Shown: in pieces, positions 11,453-18,184 of the stretch
Position numbering within the stretch: position 1 is the stretch's first letter
Layout of the letters: the number at the start of each line of letters is the position of its first letter
Assembly: GCA_017382015.1 (NCBI GenBank)
Contig: JAFOBC010000042.1
Location: forward strand, 1 to 40,894
Direction of reading: 5' to 3'
DNA: 40,894 nucleotides
Source of the DNA: Clostridia bacterium
GTDB lineage: Bacteria > Bacillota > Clostridia > Oscillospirales > Acutalibacteraceae
Translations under genes and position numbers: made by a program
Notes under the pieces: generated by a model
Seen by the model: the letters and a program-made list of their open reading frames with translations, nothing else
What the model was told of the DNA's origin: nothing
Database searches by the model: none

Positions 11453-12292
11453 TTAATCAGACATCAATGTTATTGTTCCTGTAGCCCTTGTAGAGGTTAT
11501 ATTTTTAGCATACCGTGTTATATATCCGGTTGTTTCGTCGCCACCGCCCCAACAACCGCCGGAAAAGTAACAACCGTCATAATAATTATTATCATTATCA
11601 GTAAAATTGCATATAAAAGTTCGTTTTTCAGCAAAATAACTTTGTTCACCTGTCAATGTATAGTTTCCGGTTGAGCTGTCATAAGTGTAAGATTCAACAT
11701 AATCATCGTAAGACAATTCTATGGAAACATCAATAGATGCAAGTTTTTCAATATACTTCTCTTTTAAAAATAATTTAAATGCAATGCTAAAATCCTGCGG
11801 AGTACCATAATCACCAAAACTATTTTTTTTAGCATTGTTGATAATTTTCACTTCAAAGTATTGTTCCCAATTTTCAGTGGTAATTGTTATTTGTTGGGTC
11901 TTTGCTTTTAAATTACAATTTAAACAAACACCTTTAACAAAGTTATGACCCAAAGCAGAGCCATTGGTTTCACCACAAGAGCATTTTGCAGGTTCAGTAC
12001 AGGTAGCCGCTGAATACCTGTGGGTGTGGGAAGTCTCTATTATGGGTGGTGTGGTAGTAAAAGGCATTGTAACAGCCGATTCGGTGCTCTCAGTGTATTC
12101 TTCGCCTGTGGTAATCTCGGCAATACCCTGTGTGTTATCCTCTGAACCATCCGTAGCGTTAACGGTACTATCTGTTGGGATTGTTGTTACTTCTGTAATT
12201 TCACCTGTGGAGGTACTTTCGTTATCTCCACCGCAAGCATTCAATACAAAGAGCATACATATAACTAGGAGCACTGCAATTATTTTCTTCAT
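11453..12292 (-). CDS. lipoprotein, unknown function
   Basis: 279 aa. The lipobox is MKKIIAVLLVICMLFVLNAC-GG, followed by a T/E/S-rich linker and a Cys-rich segment (CTEPAKCSCGETNGSALGHNFVKGVCLNC). Confidence 0.7.
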   Translation of the reverse strand: MKKIIAVLLVICMLFVLNACGGDNESTSTGEITEVTTIPTDSTVNATDGSEDNTQGIAEITTGEEYTESTESAVTMPFTTTPPIIETSHTHRYSAATCTEPAKCSCGETNGSALGHNFVKGVCLNCNLKAKTQQITITTENWEQYFEVKIINNAKKNSFGDYGTPQDFSIAFKLFLKEKYIEKLASIDVSIELSYDDYVESYTYDSSTGNYTLTGEQSYFAEKRTFICNFTDNDNNYYDGCYFSGGCWGGGDETTGYITRYAKNITSTRATGTITLMSD

Positions 12293-12485: not shown

Positions 12486-12512
12486 TAATCCGTTATAATC
12501 ATTCATACCAGA
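12486..12512 (+). repeat. direct repeat DR-B copy 2
   Basis: It matches 8685-8711 (26/27). No plus-strand gene precedes this copy. Confidence 0.8.
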
Positions 12513-12514
12513 TA

Positions 12515-12550
12515 AAACAGATACTCAGCCGAGTGTCTGTTTTATTTTTT
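12515..12550 (+). terminator. orphan terminator hairpin attached to DR-B copy 2
   Basis: 12-bp stem aaacagatactc/gagtgtctgttt (one G.U pair) followed by a T-rich run. No plus-strand CDS lies upstream. Confidence 0.5.
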
Positions 12551-12563
12551 ATAAATTACAATG

Positions 12564-12606
12564 AAAAAACACTTCTGAAACCCAACCGGCGACAGAAGTG
12601 TTTTTT
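12564..12606. terminator. bidirectional terminator ending the minus-strand toxin/immunity operon
   Basis: aaaaaacacttctg...cagaagtgtttttt is read on the minus strand as stem plus T6, 82 nt after the stop at 12688. Confidence 0.7.
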
Positions 12607-12687: not shown

Positions 12688-13323
12688 TTAATTTTCAAGA
12701 AAATCCAAAGCTTTTTTGTACTTTTCAAGACGAGCAAAATCCGCTTCACCGGGATTTTTGATTCTTGAGATATCCATATTGTGTTTGATATCAGCCATTT
12801 TTACATGCCATGCGTTGCTATCCATCTTTACTGTTTTCAGATAATCCTCATATGAAACACCGTCAGTCTTTGTGAGTATACGTATAGAATTTACGATTCT
12901 GTATGTAAAACCCATTTCAATAAGCTCTTCCGGCGTAACATCAGTATCCTCAATCACATCATGCAAATACGCAACAATTTTGTGTTCGGTGCTCTCAAGC
13001 GAAGCCGCTACTGCCTGCGGATGCAAAAAATAAGGGTTGCCGCCTTTATCATATTGCCCCTCATGAGATACTGCCGAAACCTTAATCGCCAAACCAAGGA
13101 GACGGTTTAACAAAAGCCGTCTTTCCTCGAGTAATACCATAGCTTCATCTTCGGATATAATAACATATTGATCAAACTTAACATCATCAGGCCACATATA
13201 ACGCGCCATTATGCCGCTGCGCACCCATTTTTCTGCACCAAAATGATATACATATCGTTTTCCGTCATCATCTTTGACAACCTCATTCGCATTAAGCTTA
13301 TCCGTTAACTTATAGTAAATCAT
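12688..13323 (-). CDS. HD-domain small alarmone hydrolase (SpoT/Mesh1-type), probable immunity/antitoxin to the upstream RSH toxin
   Basis: 211 aa. NPYFLHPQAVAASLESTEHKIVAYLHDVIEDTDVTPEELIEMGF matches the H..HD..ED(T) hydrolase motifs of RelA/SpoT HD domains. An extra N-terminal domain of about 85 aa is present. Its start overlaps the upstream stop (ATGA at 13320-13323). Confidence 0.75.
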   Translation of the reverse strand: MIYYKLTDKLNANEVVKDDDGKRYVYHFGAEKWVRSGIMARYMWPDDVKFDQYVIISEDEAMVLLEERRLLLNRLLGLAIKVSAVSHEGQYDKGGNPYFLHPQAVAASLESTEHKIVAYLHDVIEDTDVTPEELIEMGFTYRIVNSIRILTKTDGVSYEDYLKTVKMDSNAWHVKMADIKHNMDISRIKNPGEADFARLEKYKKALDFLEN

Positions 13324-14249
13324 CTGTTTCGCACCTTCTCTATACCTTTCGGTCTTTCCATCTTTGATGAAAGTTCTGCCATTTTTTCGTCAAGCTCTAT
13401 TGCTTTGGGATTATCATCTGCCATTGTTCGACGTTGCTCGTACAGCGCATGTAATTCTCCGTTTTTTAAATCAAAGCTCTCTTGCGTATGAAACTGAACC
13501 TCAAAAGATTGCCCTTCAGGATTGGTGAGAACCGCATTTATACCACGGTAAGTTGCATTCTCGTTATCCCATGTGTTTTTCACTCTGTCTACTGTATACC
13601 CTCTTGACTCAAAATCACTAAGACAAGCATTGGTTCCGTCTGCAAGTTCATCCGGAGAATAAACCGCCGTATAGCGTATAACATCATTCATATCCTGAAC
13701 ATCAACATGCTCGCCGGAACCACGGTCATACATTTTTTCATATGTAGAAGACGGTGTTTTCACCCTATATTCAAGACCCTGAAGTTCCGCCATATTTTTT
13801 TCTGCTACATTTTTAACATCATTGGTAATTGCCGGCTCCCTTTCAATGATATCAAAGTAGGAGTTCTTTTCATCGGCGGACATTTTACCAAGCGCTTCAA
13901 CTTGTTTGGCTTTTGATTCATCTGACATTTTATCAAAGCACGCCGGCAATTCATGTTTCGAAGAAATCTCACTTTCTTTTGCAGTTCCTCCCTCAACAGC
14001 ACCGTCAGTTTTTTCTCCATACGAAAAAGCTTTCTGACGCTCAGCATTTTGAGCAGGATTCTCACGAGAAGAACTCATCAATTCAGTTTCATATTCACTT
14101 GCGCCGCCTCTGAAATCGCACAATTCCCGGCTAGCTTCATTCGAACAAAGCTCGGTATTGGCGTCCGAAGTTTCAACAGCTTCGCTTCCGCTTTCTCCGC
14201 CCGCATCAACACTTGTTGATGAAGAATCGCCGTCTCGTAAATCAGACAT
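13320..14249 (-). CDS. RelA/SpoT-homologue synthetase-fold toxin (toxSAS-like) with acidic N-terminal leader
   Basis: 309 aa. Synthetase-fold motifs appear in order: YRVKTPSSTYEK (R.K..S...K), NDVIRYTAV (D..G.R-like), TYRGINAVL (GYR..H-like), FEVQFHTQES (E.Q..T) and HALYE. The first ~120 aa are acidic and low-complexity. The SD is GAGGTGG. Confidence 0.7.
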   Translation of the reverse strand: MSDLRDGDSSSTSVDAGGESGSEAVETSDANTELCSNEASRELCDFRGGASEYETELMSSSRENPAQNAERQKAFSYGEKTDGAVEGGTAKESEISSKHELPACFDKMSDESKAKQVEALGKMSADEKNSYFDIIEREPAITNDVKNVAEKNMAELQGLEYRVKTPSSTYEKMYDRGSGEHVDVQDMNDVIRYTAVYSPDELADGTNACLSDFESRGYTVDRVKNTWDNENATYRGINAVLTNPEGQSFEVQFHTQESFDLKNGELHALYEQRRTMADDNPKAIELDEKMAELSSKMERPKGIEKVRNR

Positions 14250-14268
14250 AATATAACCACCTCAAAAT

Positions 14269-14673
14269 TTATGCTCCCAAAAAGCGTTGTAAAACGTAAC
14301 CGAATAAGTCGATATTCAAGGGGACAATATCATTATTACCTGCAACAAACCTATAAACAAGGTCATTTGAATCAACCAGATAAAAATCGCCGTCGCCCTG
14401 ATCTTCAACTGCAATTAAATTTCTTGTTTTATCAAAACTGCTATGAAGCCACAGGGTTTTGACAACCATATCGGAATTAACACCTTGACCATTATTTATA
14501 CCAAACAGCTCTATATGTTTATATCCCAAATAACCATATTCCAAAACGTACTTTTTCAGCTGTTCGCCAAAAGTTACCCCTGTTTTGGACTCCATCTCAG
14601 AAATCCTGTCTGCAGATATTCTGTTAAACGTGTAATCAACGTCATTGTTTTTTACAAACTCAATTAACATCAT
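14269..14673 (-). CDS. SMI1/KNR4 (SUKH-1) family immunity protein
   Basis: 134 aa. It has the typical SUKH layout: I.E.E...GV.F.EQLKKYVLEYGYLGY...ELFGIN, then a later acidic block with DGDFYLVD. It starts 6 nt after the nuclease-toxin gene, behind an AAGGAGG SD. Confidence 0.7.
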   Translation of the reverse strand: MMLIEFVKNNDVDYTFNRISADRISEMESKTGVTFGEQLKKYVLEYGYLGYKHIELFGINNGQGVNSDMVVKTLWLHSSFDKTRNLIAVEDQGDGDFYLVDSNDLVYRFVAGNNDIVPLNIDLFGYVLQRFLGA

Positions 14674-14679
14674 TACAAA

Positions 14680-15393
14680 TCAACCTCCTTTGGCTCTTGA
14701 TTTCCAGTGTTCAGGTCTTTCAACATTGTTATAATGATTACTCTTCTGCGAGTCGTTTCTCCAGCTTTCACCATCTTTTGTATGCAAGGATGAATAACAG
14801 TTTCCGTGTTCGCTGTCCGCCGTAAGTTCGGCTAAAGGAGAATCATAATCTTGACCTATATGATGCAATTCTATTCTTTCACCGGTTTTAGCATCATACG
14901 GAGCGCGGCCTTTTTCCATCAATTCTCTGTTTGTCATACCGGATTTAGGATCAACATAATCCATATCAATTTTATCTCTCACAAGGCAAACTCTGCCATC
15001 GACATTTTCTTCCCTCAGGTTTGCTTTCTGATAAACTTCAAGCTCTTCAACCGATGAAATATGTTCATTTACTTCATCTGAATAGTTACTTTTTTCGTTT
15101 ATTTCCGCTCTTATTTCCTCAGGGCTTTTTTCACCCTCCACAGAGGGCTGTTCGGCAGCCTCTTCGTTTGTTGAATCGGGTTTTGCAGTTTCTTTGGTAT
15201 TCTGTTTTTCGCCTTCAACCAACTCTGCATTTTCTGATTTTTCCGCTCCGGCAACCAACTCTTGATTGGCTTCTTCGCCTTCTTTGCCGCTATAGAGCTC
15301 AGTTGCAGCATCATTAGCTTCAACAGACGATTCGTTTGCCGAATCCGAAGAACCGCTGCTTACCGATACATCTGAACCGTCTTCTGAACACAT
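14680..15393 (-). CDS. HNH/EndoVII-fold nuclease toxin of the LHH type with acidic N-terminal leader
   Basis: 237 aa. The C-terminal ~90 aa contain GERIELHHIGQDYDSPLAELTADSEHGN...LH, with the LHH codons at 14860-14868. The N-terminal ~120 aa are S/E-rich. The SD is AAGGAGG. Confidence 0.7.
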   Translation of the reverse strand: MCSEDGSDVSVSSGSSDSANESSVEANDAATELYSGKEGEEANQELVAGAEKSENAELVEGEKQNTKETAKPDSTNEEAAEQPSVEGEKSPEEIRAEINEKSNYSDEVNEHISSVEELEVYQKANLREENVDGRVCLVRDKIDMDYVDPKSGMTNRELMEKGRAPYDAKTGERIELHHIGQDYDSPLAELTADSEHGNCYSSLHTKDGESWRNDSQKSNHYNNVERPEHWKSRAKGG

Positions 15394-15407: not shown

Positions 15408-18098
15408 TTACTTTCCGATAATTTCATTAATATAAATGCGCTCAATTTCACTGAAAAGCGCTTTGTCTTTCTTCCTGATATCCCATTGCTCAATCAAACA
15501 ATTCATTAAACAGTTTTTGCTGTTCAACACATTGGATGATCTGAGTGACGGATTAGAATTTATAAAATTCTCCAAGCTTGTATTGACATCACATATTTTA
15601 CATGTCTGAGTTACCAAGGGGTTTATGCTTCTGGAAAACCTTATAAATAGACCGGGGTCGGCCAATAAATTCAGAACATCTTCAGGTATACACTCACAAA
15701 AGCACTTGCAAGCTCTGCAAATAGCGCTCCTTTTATTTGTTAATACCTCATATCCCTTATCGCTTCTTATATCAATACAATTGTGTTGCGTTGCACAAAT
15801 AACATCCTGCCTGGAAATATATTTTCTGCTGTCGAGCATAAAACTGTTGGCATAGACGGGCTTGACCAGCTTAGGTCTGTTATCGCCTTCGGAATAAACC
15901 GCCGCAACACCTTGCTTGAGCGTGGAGAGTGCCGCTATCTGTTCATCTGTCATGTTCATAGCGCCACCCATCAATGTTCTCTCATCCTCAGCTACTGTTC
16001 GATGGACGATCTTTAAATTAGTGTTTTTTATCAGATCCGGTGCCAATTTCGACGGAATCTGATCGGCAACAACAAAGCCCTGTCCTTTGCTTCGCATCTC
16101 CGCAAGCATATTGCAGAAAAACTCAACAGCCGCACCCCTTGGGTCAGCATTTTCACCTGTTCCGCTTTGGACATTTTTCAAAAGCCTGTGTGCTTCTTCT
16201 ATGAGTAAAAGATGTCTGATTTCAAGCTGGCAATCCTCTTGTTGACGTCTGTACTCCAAAACCTTGATGAGCAAAAGACTGATGATAAATGCTTTTACAT
16301 CATCATCGCCAATATCCTCAATTTCAATTATAGTATTATTTTCAAGCAAATGCTCCATCGGGAAAGATTTTTTCACATTAAGCGCAGAGCCTTTGCTACC
16401 TATACGCAATGAATTTATGCGTGCCTGTAACGAGCCAATCAGGTCGTTACGCATTTTTGAATCGTAACCCATCTCCGTAACAATTTGCGGTATTTTGAAG
16501 TACAAATCCTCAATTGTCGGGTAAACTTCAACACCGTTACGATTCACATTATTGTCTATATCCCAGCCGTAATCCTCATAAATGCTGTATATGGCTTTTT
16601 CAAGCACATACGGCATAGGTGTATACATAATAAAGCTCGCTTTAAATGCAGCATAAACAAAATCTATATGAGTCTGAATAGAAACCGATTTCACGTTTCC
16701 GTTAACGTCCTTGTATGAAACGCGTTCGAAAGGATTGATGCATAACCTGCTGGCATTAGGTTCACTGGAACCCACGCTGTATATACGCAAATCATCAAAT
16801 CCGAGTTTATAAAGCTCCCAATATTCTTTTTTGGCGGGTTCTATAATTAAAAACGGCTTTCTTTTTGAGTTGTTTTTTCCTACGCTGCATATCAAACTCT
16901 TTAAAGTATTTGTCTTACCTGAACCGGTTAATCCAATTACCAGGCAATGCCTGTTAAACTCGTTTATATCAATCAGATATTCATTGTTGGTAGGATTACC
17001 GTTTTCAAGTATATGACCAACAGATAAATCTCCTTGAATTTCTCTGTTAACATCAAAAGCAACATAATCTTTTACACCGAATCCAGCCGTATCAACAACA
17101 GGCGGCGCAGAATACACAGCCAACTCCTTACTGCTCAGCAATGTACCGTAAACCGGATAATCAGACTTACAGAAATTATTATGTGTATACTTTCCGGCAT
17201 CAATCAGTCTGTGATAACAACCAGGCCGATGATAAACCGGATGAACAGGCTCAGGAATTGACTCTTCGCCCAGATAAGCAGACGAAAGCAAACCGCCAAG
17301 AAGTCCGGCATCGTCATTACTGGTAGCTGCAAAATTTATAACCGTACTCCACTCACCAACAGCAATGCTTTCTTCCAACTTTTCAACAAAAGCCTGGATT
17401 TTTTTGTTGTATTGTTCACTATGAAAATAGCTCTTTTTGTATGAAGTGGTTTCTACATTATCACTATCCGTATATGTCACATCGGAAAGCTGACTGCATT
17501 CCGTAGCAAGAGTCAACCACATATGCTGTCTTACTATAGATTCACTCTTGCTGACAGGAGTTGCAAAAATAGAAATTTGCCACTTTTTGTTTTTCATTCC
17601 GCGTACTACTTTCTCAAGTTGATTTGAGAATTTAAAATTTTCAGAACCGGTCGAATTGCCTTTTAAAAATCCGCCATTGCTCCAATTCTGATTGTTTAAT
17701 ACAGTAGCAGAATCAAAAACTGCATCGTTATCAGATTCGTTTCTTGAAAACTGTATCTGAGGAAAAATTCCGGAATATGTATTTTTGATCACTTCAAGAT
17801 ATTGTATCGGGCCACCTATAAACACATCTATTTTATTTCCGTCACAATTAATAACAGTAGATACGTTAATCTTAAGAGAATGTAAACTCACAAAAACTTC
17901 TGTCAGAATATTCCATAACGGTCTTTCTTCTACATCCCATAAATTGCTGATTTCGGTAATTTTTAAATATGCATATGAACCGACAGCATAATCTTCAGAT
18001 ATTCCATCGGTAACTCTGCTTGAATTCATAGCGTCAAGCATTACCACATACCTATCTATAATACGTTTACTTTTCTCCTCGAATTCGATTCTTTTCAT
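15408..18098 (-). CDS. HerA/FtsK-superfamily (DUF87-like) P-loop ATPase with Cys-rich C-terminal region
   Basis: The track ORF runs to 18143. I prefer the ATG at 18098 (MKRIEFEE...), which has GGAG about 10 nt upstream. Walker A GLTGSGKT is at 16911-16934. Walker B HLLLIEEAH, typical of HerA/DUF87, is at 16188-16214, and ADQIPSKL follows. The C-terminus holds CRACKCFCEC...CKIC...CLMNC. Confidence 0.75.
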   Translation of the reverse strand: MKRIEFEEKSKRIIDRYVVMLDAMNSSRVTDGISEDYAVGSYAYLKITEISNLWDVEERPLWNILTEVFVSLHSLKINVSTVINCDGNKIDVFIGGPIQYLEVIKNTYSGIFPQIQFSRNESDNDAVFDSATVLNNQNWSNGGFLKGNSTGSENFKFSNQLEKVVRGMKNKKWQISIFATPVSKSESIVRQHMWLTLATECSQLSDVTYTDSDNVETTSYKKSYFHSEQYNKKIQAFVEKLEESIAVGEWSTVINFAATSNDDAGLLGGLLSSAYLGEESIPEPVHPVYHRPGCYHRLIDAGKYTHNNFCKSDYPVYGTLLSSKELAVYSAPPVVDTAGFGVKDYVAFDVNREIQGDLSVGHILENGNPTNNEYLIDINEFNRHCLVIGLTGSGKTNTLKSLICSVGKNNSKRKPFLIIEPAKKEYWELYKLGFDDLRIYSVGSSEPNASRLCINPFERVSYKDVNGNVKSVSIQTHIDFVYAAFKASFIMYTPMPYVLEKAIYSIYEDYGWDIDNNVNRNGVEVYPTIEDLYFKIPQIVTEMGYDSKMRNDLIGSLQARINSLRIGSKGSALNVKKSFPMEHLLENNTIIEIEDIGDDDVKAFIISLLLIKVLEYRRQQEDCQLEIRHLLLIEEAHRLLKNVQSGTGENADPRGAAVEFFCNMLAEMRSKGQGFVVADQIPSKLAPDLIKNTNLKIVHRTVAEDERTLMGGAMNMTDEQIAALSTLKQGVAAVYSEGDNRPKLVKPVYANSFMLDSRKYISRQDVICATQHNCIDIRSDKGYEVLTNKRSAICRACKCFCECIPEDVLNLLADPGLFIRFSRSINPLVTQTCKICDVNTSLENFINSNPSLRSSNVLNSKNCLMNCLIEQWDIRKKDKALFSEIERIYINEIIGK

Positions 18099-18184
18099 AA
18101 TAAAGATTACTCCGTTTCTTGTATATACCGCAAACAATATCACCGCTAAAAAGCGGATTTCAAAGCGACTGATATTTTCAGTAA

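Follow-up and report, generated by a model that had tools for sequence, protein, structure and literature searches.

A 40,894-nucleotide (nt) stretch of DNA from a Clostridia bacterium of the family Acutalibacteraceae (GenBank assembly GCA_017382015.1, contig JAFOBC010000042.1), referred to here in its full length as the window, carries two overlapping minus-strand genes, one for a 309-amino-acid (aa) protein with an intact RelA/SpoT synthetase domain of the Apk/EAS toxin clade and one for a 211-aa protein with an HD hydrolase domain. Together they form a polymorphic-toxin-type effector-immunity cassette, which follows a HerA-type ATPase gene and a nuclease toxin with its SUKH immunity gene (Table 1). 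We infer the functions of the toxin and its immunity protein from homology and gene context; comparison loci and homologs carry L- and P-numbers.

An earlier reading made from the letters of the window alone (the sequence-only reading) had called a RelA/SpoT-fold protein overlapping an HD alarmone hydrolase by 4 nt, and these calls held up: both open reading frames (ORFs) are present on the minus strand, the ATGA overlap is read at 13323..13320, and each fold was recovered, as set out below. The identical 4-nt overlap also occurs in homologous loci. Spacing upstream is tight as well, with 14 nt between the ATPase and the nuclease (LHH) toxin, 6 nt between LHH and SUKH, and 19 nt between SUKH and the RelA/SpoT homolog (RSH) toxin. 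Neither a terminator nor an obvious promoter was found between the ATPase and the toxin/immunity pair by consensus scan and folding, and the first strong terminator comes only 3' of the immunity gene, as a hairpin of -23.7 kcal/mol (z = -5.4; 0/200 shuffles equally stable in folding). The consensus scan missed this hairpin because its central region is larger than the 3-8-nt loop limit of the scan.

Table 1. Features of the toxin/immunity pair and of the genes next to it in the window.
Feature	Position	Strand	Description or basis
Intrinsic terminator hairpin, then U-run	12564..12606	-	operon end
Immunity gene, 211 aa	12688..13323	-	N-terminal beta domain fused to Aph1-family HD (p)ppApp hydrolase domain (predicted)
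Aph1-like HD hydrolase domain, aa 74-211	12691..13104	-	7SMG match, Foldseek, signature residues
N-terminal beta domain, aa 1-57, five strands	13153..13323	-	predicted toxin-binding immunity module
ATGA overlap	13320..13323	-	toxin stop codon overlaps immunity start codon; translational coupling
Toxin gene, 309 aa	13320..14249	-	acidic leader and RelA/SpoT-type (Apk/EAS clade) alarmone synthetase warhead
Toxin module, aa ~99-309	13320..13955	-	three N-terminal helices and SYNTH core
Toxin leader, aa 1-98	13956..14249	-	disordered, acidic, Ser/Thr-rich
Ribosome-binding site GAGGTGG	14257..14263	-	7 nt before toxin ATG; read from sequence
SUKH immunity gene	14269-14673	-	Pfam SUKH_5 1.2e-13
LHH nuclease toxin gene with acidic leader	14680-15393	-	Pfam LHH 1.9e-20
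HerA-type DUF87 ATPase gene	15408-18143	-	Pfam, PADLOC, NCBIfam; HerA-clade PDB matches
Gene for 371-aa ATPase partner, four C-terminal transmembrane helices	18185-19300	-	transmembrane scan

The toxin warhead

The synthetase motifs of the 309-aa toxin (R162.K164...S168...K172, D189..R192, Y234.G236.N238, E250.Q252..T255, and H267..Y270) include the three that the sequence-only reading had picked out (the first, the fourth, and the last), except that the first had been written R.K..S...K, one dot short of the canonical R.K...S...K. The six active-site residues of SaEAS, D121, R124, K154, N169, E182, and Q184, correspond to D189, R192, K224, N238, E250, and Q252 of the toxin, respectively, and every catalytic residue of the warhead is intact. 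The Pfam RelA_SpoT model by itself scores below threshold over aa 162-270 (22.7 bits vs a cut-off of 27), and phmmer against the PDB matches the toxin to SaEAS (8VX3) at 3e-10. A profile of 20 members of the toxin family retrieved SaEAS at 6e-36 and Tas1/Apk1 at 5e-4 from the PDB and recovered neither housekeeping RSH enzymes nor CapRel. The AlphaFold model has a predicted local distance difference test (pLDDT) score >90 for the greater part of aa 100-309, apart from a single drop around aa 171-180, and Foldseek ranked SaEAS best (TM-score 0.76-0.78), then Tas1 (0.61), ahead of Rel, small alarmone synthetases (SAS), and CapRel.

The NCBIfam XopAD model (C-terminus) matches toxin aa 136-307 at 1.7e-30, and tblastn against phage genomes aligned the toxin with the C-termini of MuF "minor head proteins" (Apk2) from prophages of S. 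pneumoniae, Mannheimia, and Aggregatibacter (36-39% identity, ~5e-30). Taken together, the profile, fold, and tblastn matches are well outside what chance would give. Thirty-three homologs were detectable among 5.8 billion proteins, with a common block at aa ~100-309 and differing N-termini. The toxin is placed nearer the Apk/EAS toxins than housekeeping RSH and SAS enzymes or the tRNA-modifying CapRel. Its product is most likely (p)ppApp made from ATP, because of the 36-39% identity to the characterised Apk2 enzymes, which were shown to make only (p)ppApp (PMC12226406), and because its partner appears to be ppApp-specific.

The two-domain immunity protein

The HD motif of the 211-aa protein (H101...H121-D122..E125-D126) is joined in the domain by H87, D178, and N182, and the catalytic residues (H101, H121-D122, E125-D126, D178) are invariant across 20 diverse two-domain homologs. 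Residues 74-210 match Aph1 (PDB 7SMG) without gaps at E=1e-27. The AF2 model (pLDDT 95, pTM 0.90) resembles Aph1 in Foldseek with a TM-score of 0.95, a root-mean-square deviation of 0.9 A, and 39% identity, well ahead of MESH1, SpoT/Rel, and PaSAH. Over the Aph1-family hydrolases of the Apk2 systems the identity is 39-44%. Ahmad et al. (2023; PMC10083569) reported six residues that set ppApp hydrolases apart from ppGpp hydrolases, which in Aph1 are D24, R96, D116, R119, K133, and Y134. Five of the six are kept in the window protein (D92, D184, R187, K201, and Y202), all near the active site. We place the HD part in the Aph1 family of (p)ppApp hydrolases and, from its fold, catalytic residues, and signature residues, predict that it hydrolyses (p)ppApp. 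The sequence-only reading had argued that a hydrolase-type partner points to a nucleotide alarmone as the product, and that argument is the stronger for the Aph1 signature and a warhead closest to Apk2.

The window protein differs from the ~140-aa, single-domain Aph1 in having an extra N-terminal domain of ~70 aa. This had been put at ~85 aa, which is too long: measured against Aph1 the extension is ~68-73 aa, made up of a 5-strand beta domain (aa 2-56) and the start of a long helix. More than 540 two-domain (beta plus HD) homologs conserve it. Searched alone against 1.8 billion representative proteins, the N-domain gave 69 matches, mostly the N-termini of ~200-220-aa HD proteins, along with stand-alone proteins of 66-93 aa and a few other fusions. 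Weak matches to the propeller repeat FG-GAP_2 were taken as resemblance to a beta blade, not as family membership.

A natural split version exists in Megasphaera hutchinsoni (L097), where a stand-alone 73-aa homolog of the N-domain (38% identity, E=3e-10) is encoded by a gene that overlaps, by 14 nt, the 3' end of a gene for a 188-aa protein. This 188-aa protein shares 37% identity with the window toxin (E=1e-36) and also has a match to SaEAS (1e-15), and no HD gene was found near the pair. A toxin partnered by an N-domain homolog alone would be neutralised without hydrolysis, most simply by binding, and the N-domain is probably a second, non-enzymatic, toxin-binding immunity module. The 211-aa protein as a whole looks like a fusion of binding immunity with enzymatic immunity, an idea that the Megasphaera arrangement makes directly testable. 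Two overlapping genes just upstream of this pair (L097 4349-5288), one for a 226-aa protein and one for an 89-aa DUF7675 protein, may be a further toxin-immunity cassette of a small array.

Fused dual immunity would fit what has been published on related systems: Apk2 is neutralised by a Tis1-like binder and Aph1, each of which alone gives partial protection (PMC10083569), and the hydrolases turn over more slowly than the synthetases do, by orders of magnitude (PMC12691689). In phage phiARI0462 a 69-aa ORF lies between the toxin and a 137-aa HD protein, so that the two functions stand as separate genes. The 69-aa protein has no significant similarity to the N-domain, homology of the latter to known small binding immunity proteins is thus not shown, and the N-domain would represent a different binder family. 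The Apk2-Tis1-Aph1 system of Bacteroides caccae and the prophage Apk2 systems of S. pneumoniae and M. haemolytica (PMC10083569, PMC12226406) are like the window pair in their Apk-type RelA/SpoT warhead, in an Aph1-family HD gene just downstream, and in the logic of neutralisation by binding plus hydrolysis. The window pair differs from them in three respects: it has an acidic disordered leader instead of a MuF domain and a phage head module, it has a beta domain fused to the hydrolase instead of a separate Tis1-like gene, and its host is a locus of HerA-type ATPase, tubulin, and vWA genes.

Leader exchange and the ATPase locus

The warhead is preceded by a leader (aa 1-98) in which most residues have pLDDT <50 (AlphaFold) and in which 22 Asp and Glu stand against 9 Lys and Arg, with 24 Ser and Thr. 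The nearest genome locus, L011, comes from an Acutalibacteraceae metagenome-assembled genome and has a 77% identical ATPase. At the DNA level it is colinear with the window from 18917 to 14190. This span starts in the 3' part of the partner gene, takes in the genes for the ATPase, the LHH toxin, and SUKH, and stops 20 codons into the toxin gene, where the similarity ends. L011, L012, and L013 hold TNT (NADase-type) toxins in the slot of the window toxin, and the first ~60 leader residues align with these at z = 15, 12, and 6.5, respectively (composition-preserving shuffles, 0/2000 reaching the score). WHH/colicin-DNase and glutamine-deamidase warheads occur in other loci. One RSH warhead rides on differing leader types across ATPase subtypes, and leader types A1, A2, and B, motif classes defined post hoc on few loci, are each common to another warhead of their own subtype (TNT, WHH, and WHH, respectively). 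The C-terminal warhead is swappable, and in the small set of loci for which this was shown the leader appears to track the upstream ATPase subtype and not the warhead. Convincing leader homology runs between orthologous slots, to judge from the alignments; BLASTP between the leaders of the two window toxins gave a marginal match (E=0.07).

Two acidic or conserved proteins of sister loci stand near these toxins. A 93-aa acidic protein encoded 3' of a 1045-aa ATPase (L002 4445-4726, L009 962-1243) has the motif D.D[LF]..ELD..[YC] followed by a coiled coil; the motif recurs in the leaders of the WHH and RSH toxins of that locus, and the protein could be an adaptor or a decoy substrate. A conserved protein of ~416-428 aa (MT/RxVEFFD...) with no Pfam match (L011 5739-6989, L007 13546-14832) is encoded 3' of the TNT toxin in L011; in L007 its gene lies downstream of the RSH pair. 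It may confer immunity or act as an accessory component.

Other homologs show the warhead in further settings: as a frameshifted, PT-HINT-linked remnant next to an intact immunity gene in L008, where the PT-HINT junction confirms the toxin-module boundary; as a MuF fusion in a phage head module (the distant homolog P0031); and in short lone pairs of related genes (P0032 with an 85-aa gene, L094, and L097). The pair behaves as a polymorphic toxin, given the leader common to TNT toxins, the breakpoint at 14190, the PT-HINT remnant, the MuF fusion, and the adjoining LHH and SUKH genes. Alternative C-terminal toxins follow a conserved N-terminus, the immunity gene lies directly 3', and degraded cassettes occur elsewhere. 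The earlier framing as a toxin-antitoxin (TA) pair of the toxic small alarmone synthetase (toxSAS) type does not fit this behaviour.

RelA/SpoT-like toxin domains were already listed among polymorphic toxins in 2012 (PMC3482391), and the systems described there resemble the window in their constant N-terminus, variable C-terminus, downstream immunity gene, SUKH proteins, and degraded cassettes, and have LHH, WHH, TNT, and glutamine-deamidase warheads in common with the window and related loci. The window differs in having a short disordered acidic leader, not a folded trafficking domain, and in a machinery that is not a type V, VI, or VII secretion system, PVC, or MuF. The S8-PTS was considered and set aside as another polymorphic toxin system of Gram-positive bacteria, not that of the window. 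The EAS toxins SaEAS, VpEAS, and AaEAS (PMC12691689) and the type VI effector Tas1/Apk1 have the same active site as the window toxin and likewise an RSH warhead on a delivery module. SaEAS and VpEAS lack an immunity gene and some EAS make (p)ppGpp, whereas the window toxin has a coupled immunity gene. Six delivery modules are known for EAS (Sec signal peptide, WXG/LXG, XopAD, MuF, DUF4157, and Rhs/PAAR; PMC12691689), and none of them (XopAD being sought as repeats) was found at the toxin N-terminus.

The first cassette (14269-15393) adjoins the ATPase directly and encodes a nuclease of the LHH (HNH/EndoVII) type, whose acidic leader is ~95 aa long, and its SUKH protein, orthologous to the cassettes of L011-L013 at 53-69% identity. 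A toxin of >=45% identity was found in seven distinct loci, namely the window, L001, the L002/L009 group, L005, L006, L007, and L093. In 7/7 a DUF87 HerA-type ATPase of 870-1055 aa precedes, on the same strand, the RSH toxin and its HD partner of 211-213 aa. The toxin/HD pair of L005 and that of L007 each have the ATPase on one side and a transglutaminase-like gene on the other, which places them inside the locus and not at its edge. The sequence-only reading had described the pair as the terminal module of a larger locus, which is right for the window, and had considered this placement unusual, which the seven loci contradict. Among 80 species-representative genome loci with a related ATPase, none has the RSH warhead, the slot being held by other toxins, and this warhead is rare. 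An acidic leader was found in 14/80 of these loci (11 Clostridia, 3 other phyla; L031, L040, L044, L061), and we do not claim a toxin link for the whole ATPase family. The ATPase also matches the NCBIfam model ser_rich_anae_1 serine-rich protein (1.2e-26) and PADLOC mad8 (1.2e-17) and has a Cys-rich C-terminal region; the 1045-aa subtype of sister loci has a Ser/Thr-rich insertion.

The ATPase gene opens onto a 23-kb same-strand locus (15408-38620, minus strand) that encodes, besides the ATPase and its partner with four transmembrane (TM) helices, a 504-aa vWA protein (5 TM), a 1254-aa Tubulin_2 protein (8e-47), an 876-aa vWA protein (2 TM), a TM SprT-like protein, a 153-aa protein, a PGDYG protein, a 1513-aa Ser/Thr kinase, a PP2C phosphatase, and a 1086-aa protein without a family match. 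A scan of 16 window proteins detected neither GAP1 nor DO-GTPase. Genes for GAP1-N2, GAP1-M, and DO-GTPase2 do occur in sister loci, and the GAP1-N2/DO-GTPase core pair is present in L001, L002, L006, and L093. For neither the toxin nor the HD protein did PADLOC return a useful match, and a BnzA match at 2.6e-4 was disregarded as too weak.

The window locus resembles the GAP1-N2 GTPase-centric conflict systems of Kaur et al. (2020; PMC7159879) in its tubulin-like protein, two TM vWA proteins, and kinase/PP2C theme. That paper gives tubulin plus two vWA proteins as the firmicute theme, which the window shows with one vWA protein polytopic and with one tubulin gene, not two. The parts of it consulted do not describe a HerA-type ATPase or toxin-immunity cassettes, and the window for its part is without a detected GAP1 or DO-GTPase. 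A literature search found no later papers on these systems. In human-gut contigs L002 and L009 the GAP1-N2/DO-GTPase/HerA locus ends beside mobility genes (L002 18593-20393, L009 13623-15404), namely ImmA/IrrE-like and helix-turn-helix regulators, a Y-family polymerase, two Tn916-type Xis, and a tyrosine integrase, and the whole system may ride an integrative element there.

Proposed mechanism and deployment

We consider it likely that the window encodes a swappable (p)ppApp toxin with two-way immunity and, less firmly, that the toxin is exported via the HerA-type ATPase. Two cassettes close the ATPase-headed operon on its 3' side, and the pair is the second of them. The toxin would transfer pyrophosphate from ATP to the 3'-OH of ATP, ADP, or AMP, and the resulting synthesis of (p)ppApp would drain the ATP pool and stop growth. 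In the producer, the immunity N-domain would bind and block the toxin while the HD domain turned any (p)ppApp made back into ATP or ADP. The leader would direct the toxin to the ATPase and its 4-TM partner in a tubulin/vWA membrane complex for export against competing bacteria.

Export is the least certain of these steps, and we give it roughly twice the weight of intracellular use in abortive infection. It is favoured by the immunity genes, the polymorphic-toxin warhead pool, the membrane partners, and the excess of two-domain immunity homologs over toxins (>540 vs 33), which is as expected for defence against incoming toxins. More tentatively, and with the balance of probability on the other side, the ATPase and its 4-TM partner in tubulin/vWA (GAP1-N2-type) loci of Clostridia may constitute an undescribed delivery route for polymorphic toxins, with substrates recognised by short linear motifs in the disordered, polyanionic, Ser/Thr-rich leader. 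The polyanionic leader could mimic nucleic acid for a hexamer of the DNA-pump type, and the Ser/Thr kinase and PP2C phosphatase of the locus could tune it by phosphorylation.

Several points weigh against parts of this explanation. As to the product, the EAS clade includes (p)ppGpp-only and mixed-product enzymes (VpEAS, AaEAS, and SaEAS; PMC12691689), and since EAS relatives can make (p)ppGpp and the fold does not fix the product, that of the toxin is not certain. On the immunity side, the sixth signature residue, R96 of Aph1, is T164 in the 211-aa protein, at a position away from the active site; two of 12 tested Aph homologs also cut ppGpp (PMC10083569); and the N-domain has no sequence match in the PDB. 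As to delivery, no signal peptide, TM or hydrophobic segment, or known trafficking domain was found in the toxin (Pfam, TM scan), and the leader classes, as said, were drawn post hoc. The PDB relatives of the ATPase are HerA-clade proteins only, with no EssC or VirD4, and include HerA scaffolds of intracellular anti-phage systems; this kinship and the conflict-system neighbours favour intracellular use.

These last points lead to the strongest competing explanation, which we think improbable without dismissing it: the toxins would be intracellular abortive-infection effectors with the same biochemistry and no export, freed or activated against the producer cell itself by an NTP-dependent conflict (anti-phage) system on sensing an invader, with the immunity proteins setting the threshold. 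Such a system, of the type in Kaur et al., would be made up of the HerA-type ATPase and the tubulin, vWA, kinase, and PP2C proteins. The GAP1-N2, GAP1-M, and DO-GTPase2 genes of sister loci and the tubulin and two vWA genes of the window are consistent with this, as are the PADLOC HerA and mad8 matches of the ATPase, the origin of several of its solved relatives in defence complexes where HerA scaffolds an NADase or nuclease, and the resemblance of the TNT (NADase-type), nuclease, and RSH warheads to defence effectors. Most of the systems described by Kaur et al. (PMC7159879) are likewise without secretion features. Against abortive infection, each toxin is followed by an immunity gene of its own, of a polymorphic-toxin kind (SUKH, for example); the displacement of warheads on a constant leader and the PT-HINT- and MuF-linked copies point to the gene pool of exported toxins; a polytopic membrane partner adjoins the ATPase; and immunity homologs far outnumber toxins.

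Much less credible is a classical type II toxSAS addiction or stress module that lies by chance beside a large locus. FaRel-ATfaRel and other toxSAS resemble the window pair in having, next to the RSH toxin, a small alarmone hydrolase (SAH) that neutralises it, and FaRel with its SAH antitoxin is cited as a precedent in PMC10083569. The bicistronic overlap and the lone related pairs named above also agree with such a module. The window pair differs from toxSAS in not being autonomous: it has a ~98-aa disordered leader in common with unrelated TNT toxins, swapped warheads, and an obligatory linkage to the ATPase system, seen in 7/7 loci and from inside the locus in L005 and L007. It is also the second of two cassettes, with no terminator or obvious promoter found between it and the ATPase.

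Kurata et al. reportedly found in 2021 that pyrophosphorylation of tRNA can be undone by small alarmone hydrolases, and a tRNA target is therefore compatible with a hydrolase partner as such. Least probable of all is that the toxin pyrophosphorylates tRNA 3' CCA ends, like FaRel2, PhRel2, and CapRel, and that the HD partner removes this modification: the RSH fold is common to both and CapRel is among the structural matches (TMt ~0.34-0.35), but the family profile finds SaEAS and Tas1 and not CapRel in the PDB, the nearest characterised relatives are Apk2 enzymes making (p)ppApp from ATP (PMC12226406), the partner bears the adenine-specific Aph1 signature, and the toxin module (aa ~99-309) is acidic, with a net charge of -14 that appears unlike tRNA-binding toxSAS.

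An Apk/EAS toxin with Aph immunity is a kind already known; the putative fused binder-hydrolase immunity, the leader, and the machinery context are new. (p)ppApp synthetase toxins and Aph hydrolases are discoveries of 2019-2025, and the window locus adds to them in two ways. The immunity protein appears to join two known modes of neutralisation in one polypeptide, which bears on the partial protection given by a hydrolase alone and on slow hydrolase turnover. The delivery context, in which RSH, TNT, LHH, WHH, and glutamine-deamidase toxins with acidic leaders are tied to a HerA-type ATPase in tubulin/vWA loci of gut and rumen Clostridia, lies outside the published EAS list. If the machinery exports toxins, it would be a new antagonism system in these Clostridia, and many "conflict" loci, a large class so far unexplained, would gain a concrete function. 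Were the HerA route true, it would add a seventh export class for alarmone-synthetase toxins, and some of the 'NTP-dependent conflict systems' would have to be seen as weapons between bacteria.

Near-identical window sequence occurs in gut metagenomes, bovine included. In one bovine gut RNA-Seq run, short contigs cover parts of the cassettes, namely LHH, SUKH, the toxin, and the junction of toxin and immunity gene (13191-13353); they are weak evidence of co-transcription because DNA carry-over is possible. Just after the operon terminator lies a gene (11453-12292, minus strand) for a 279-aa lipoprotein with a signal peptide and Cys, a Thr/Glu-rich linker, and a Cys-rich region, without a family match. 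At 12507 and 12550, contigs from two runs of gut metagenomes break off or fork and run into different sequence, in one case with a similar terminator-like hairpin, which suggests strain-level rearrangement just downstream of the cassette (12507-12550).

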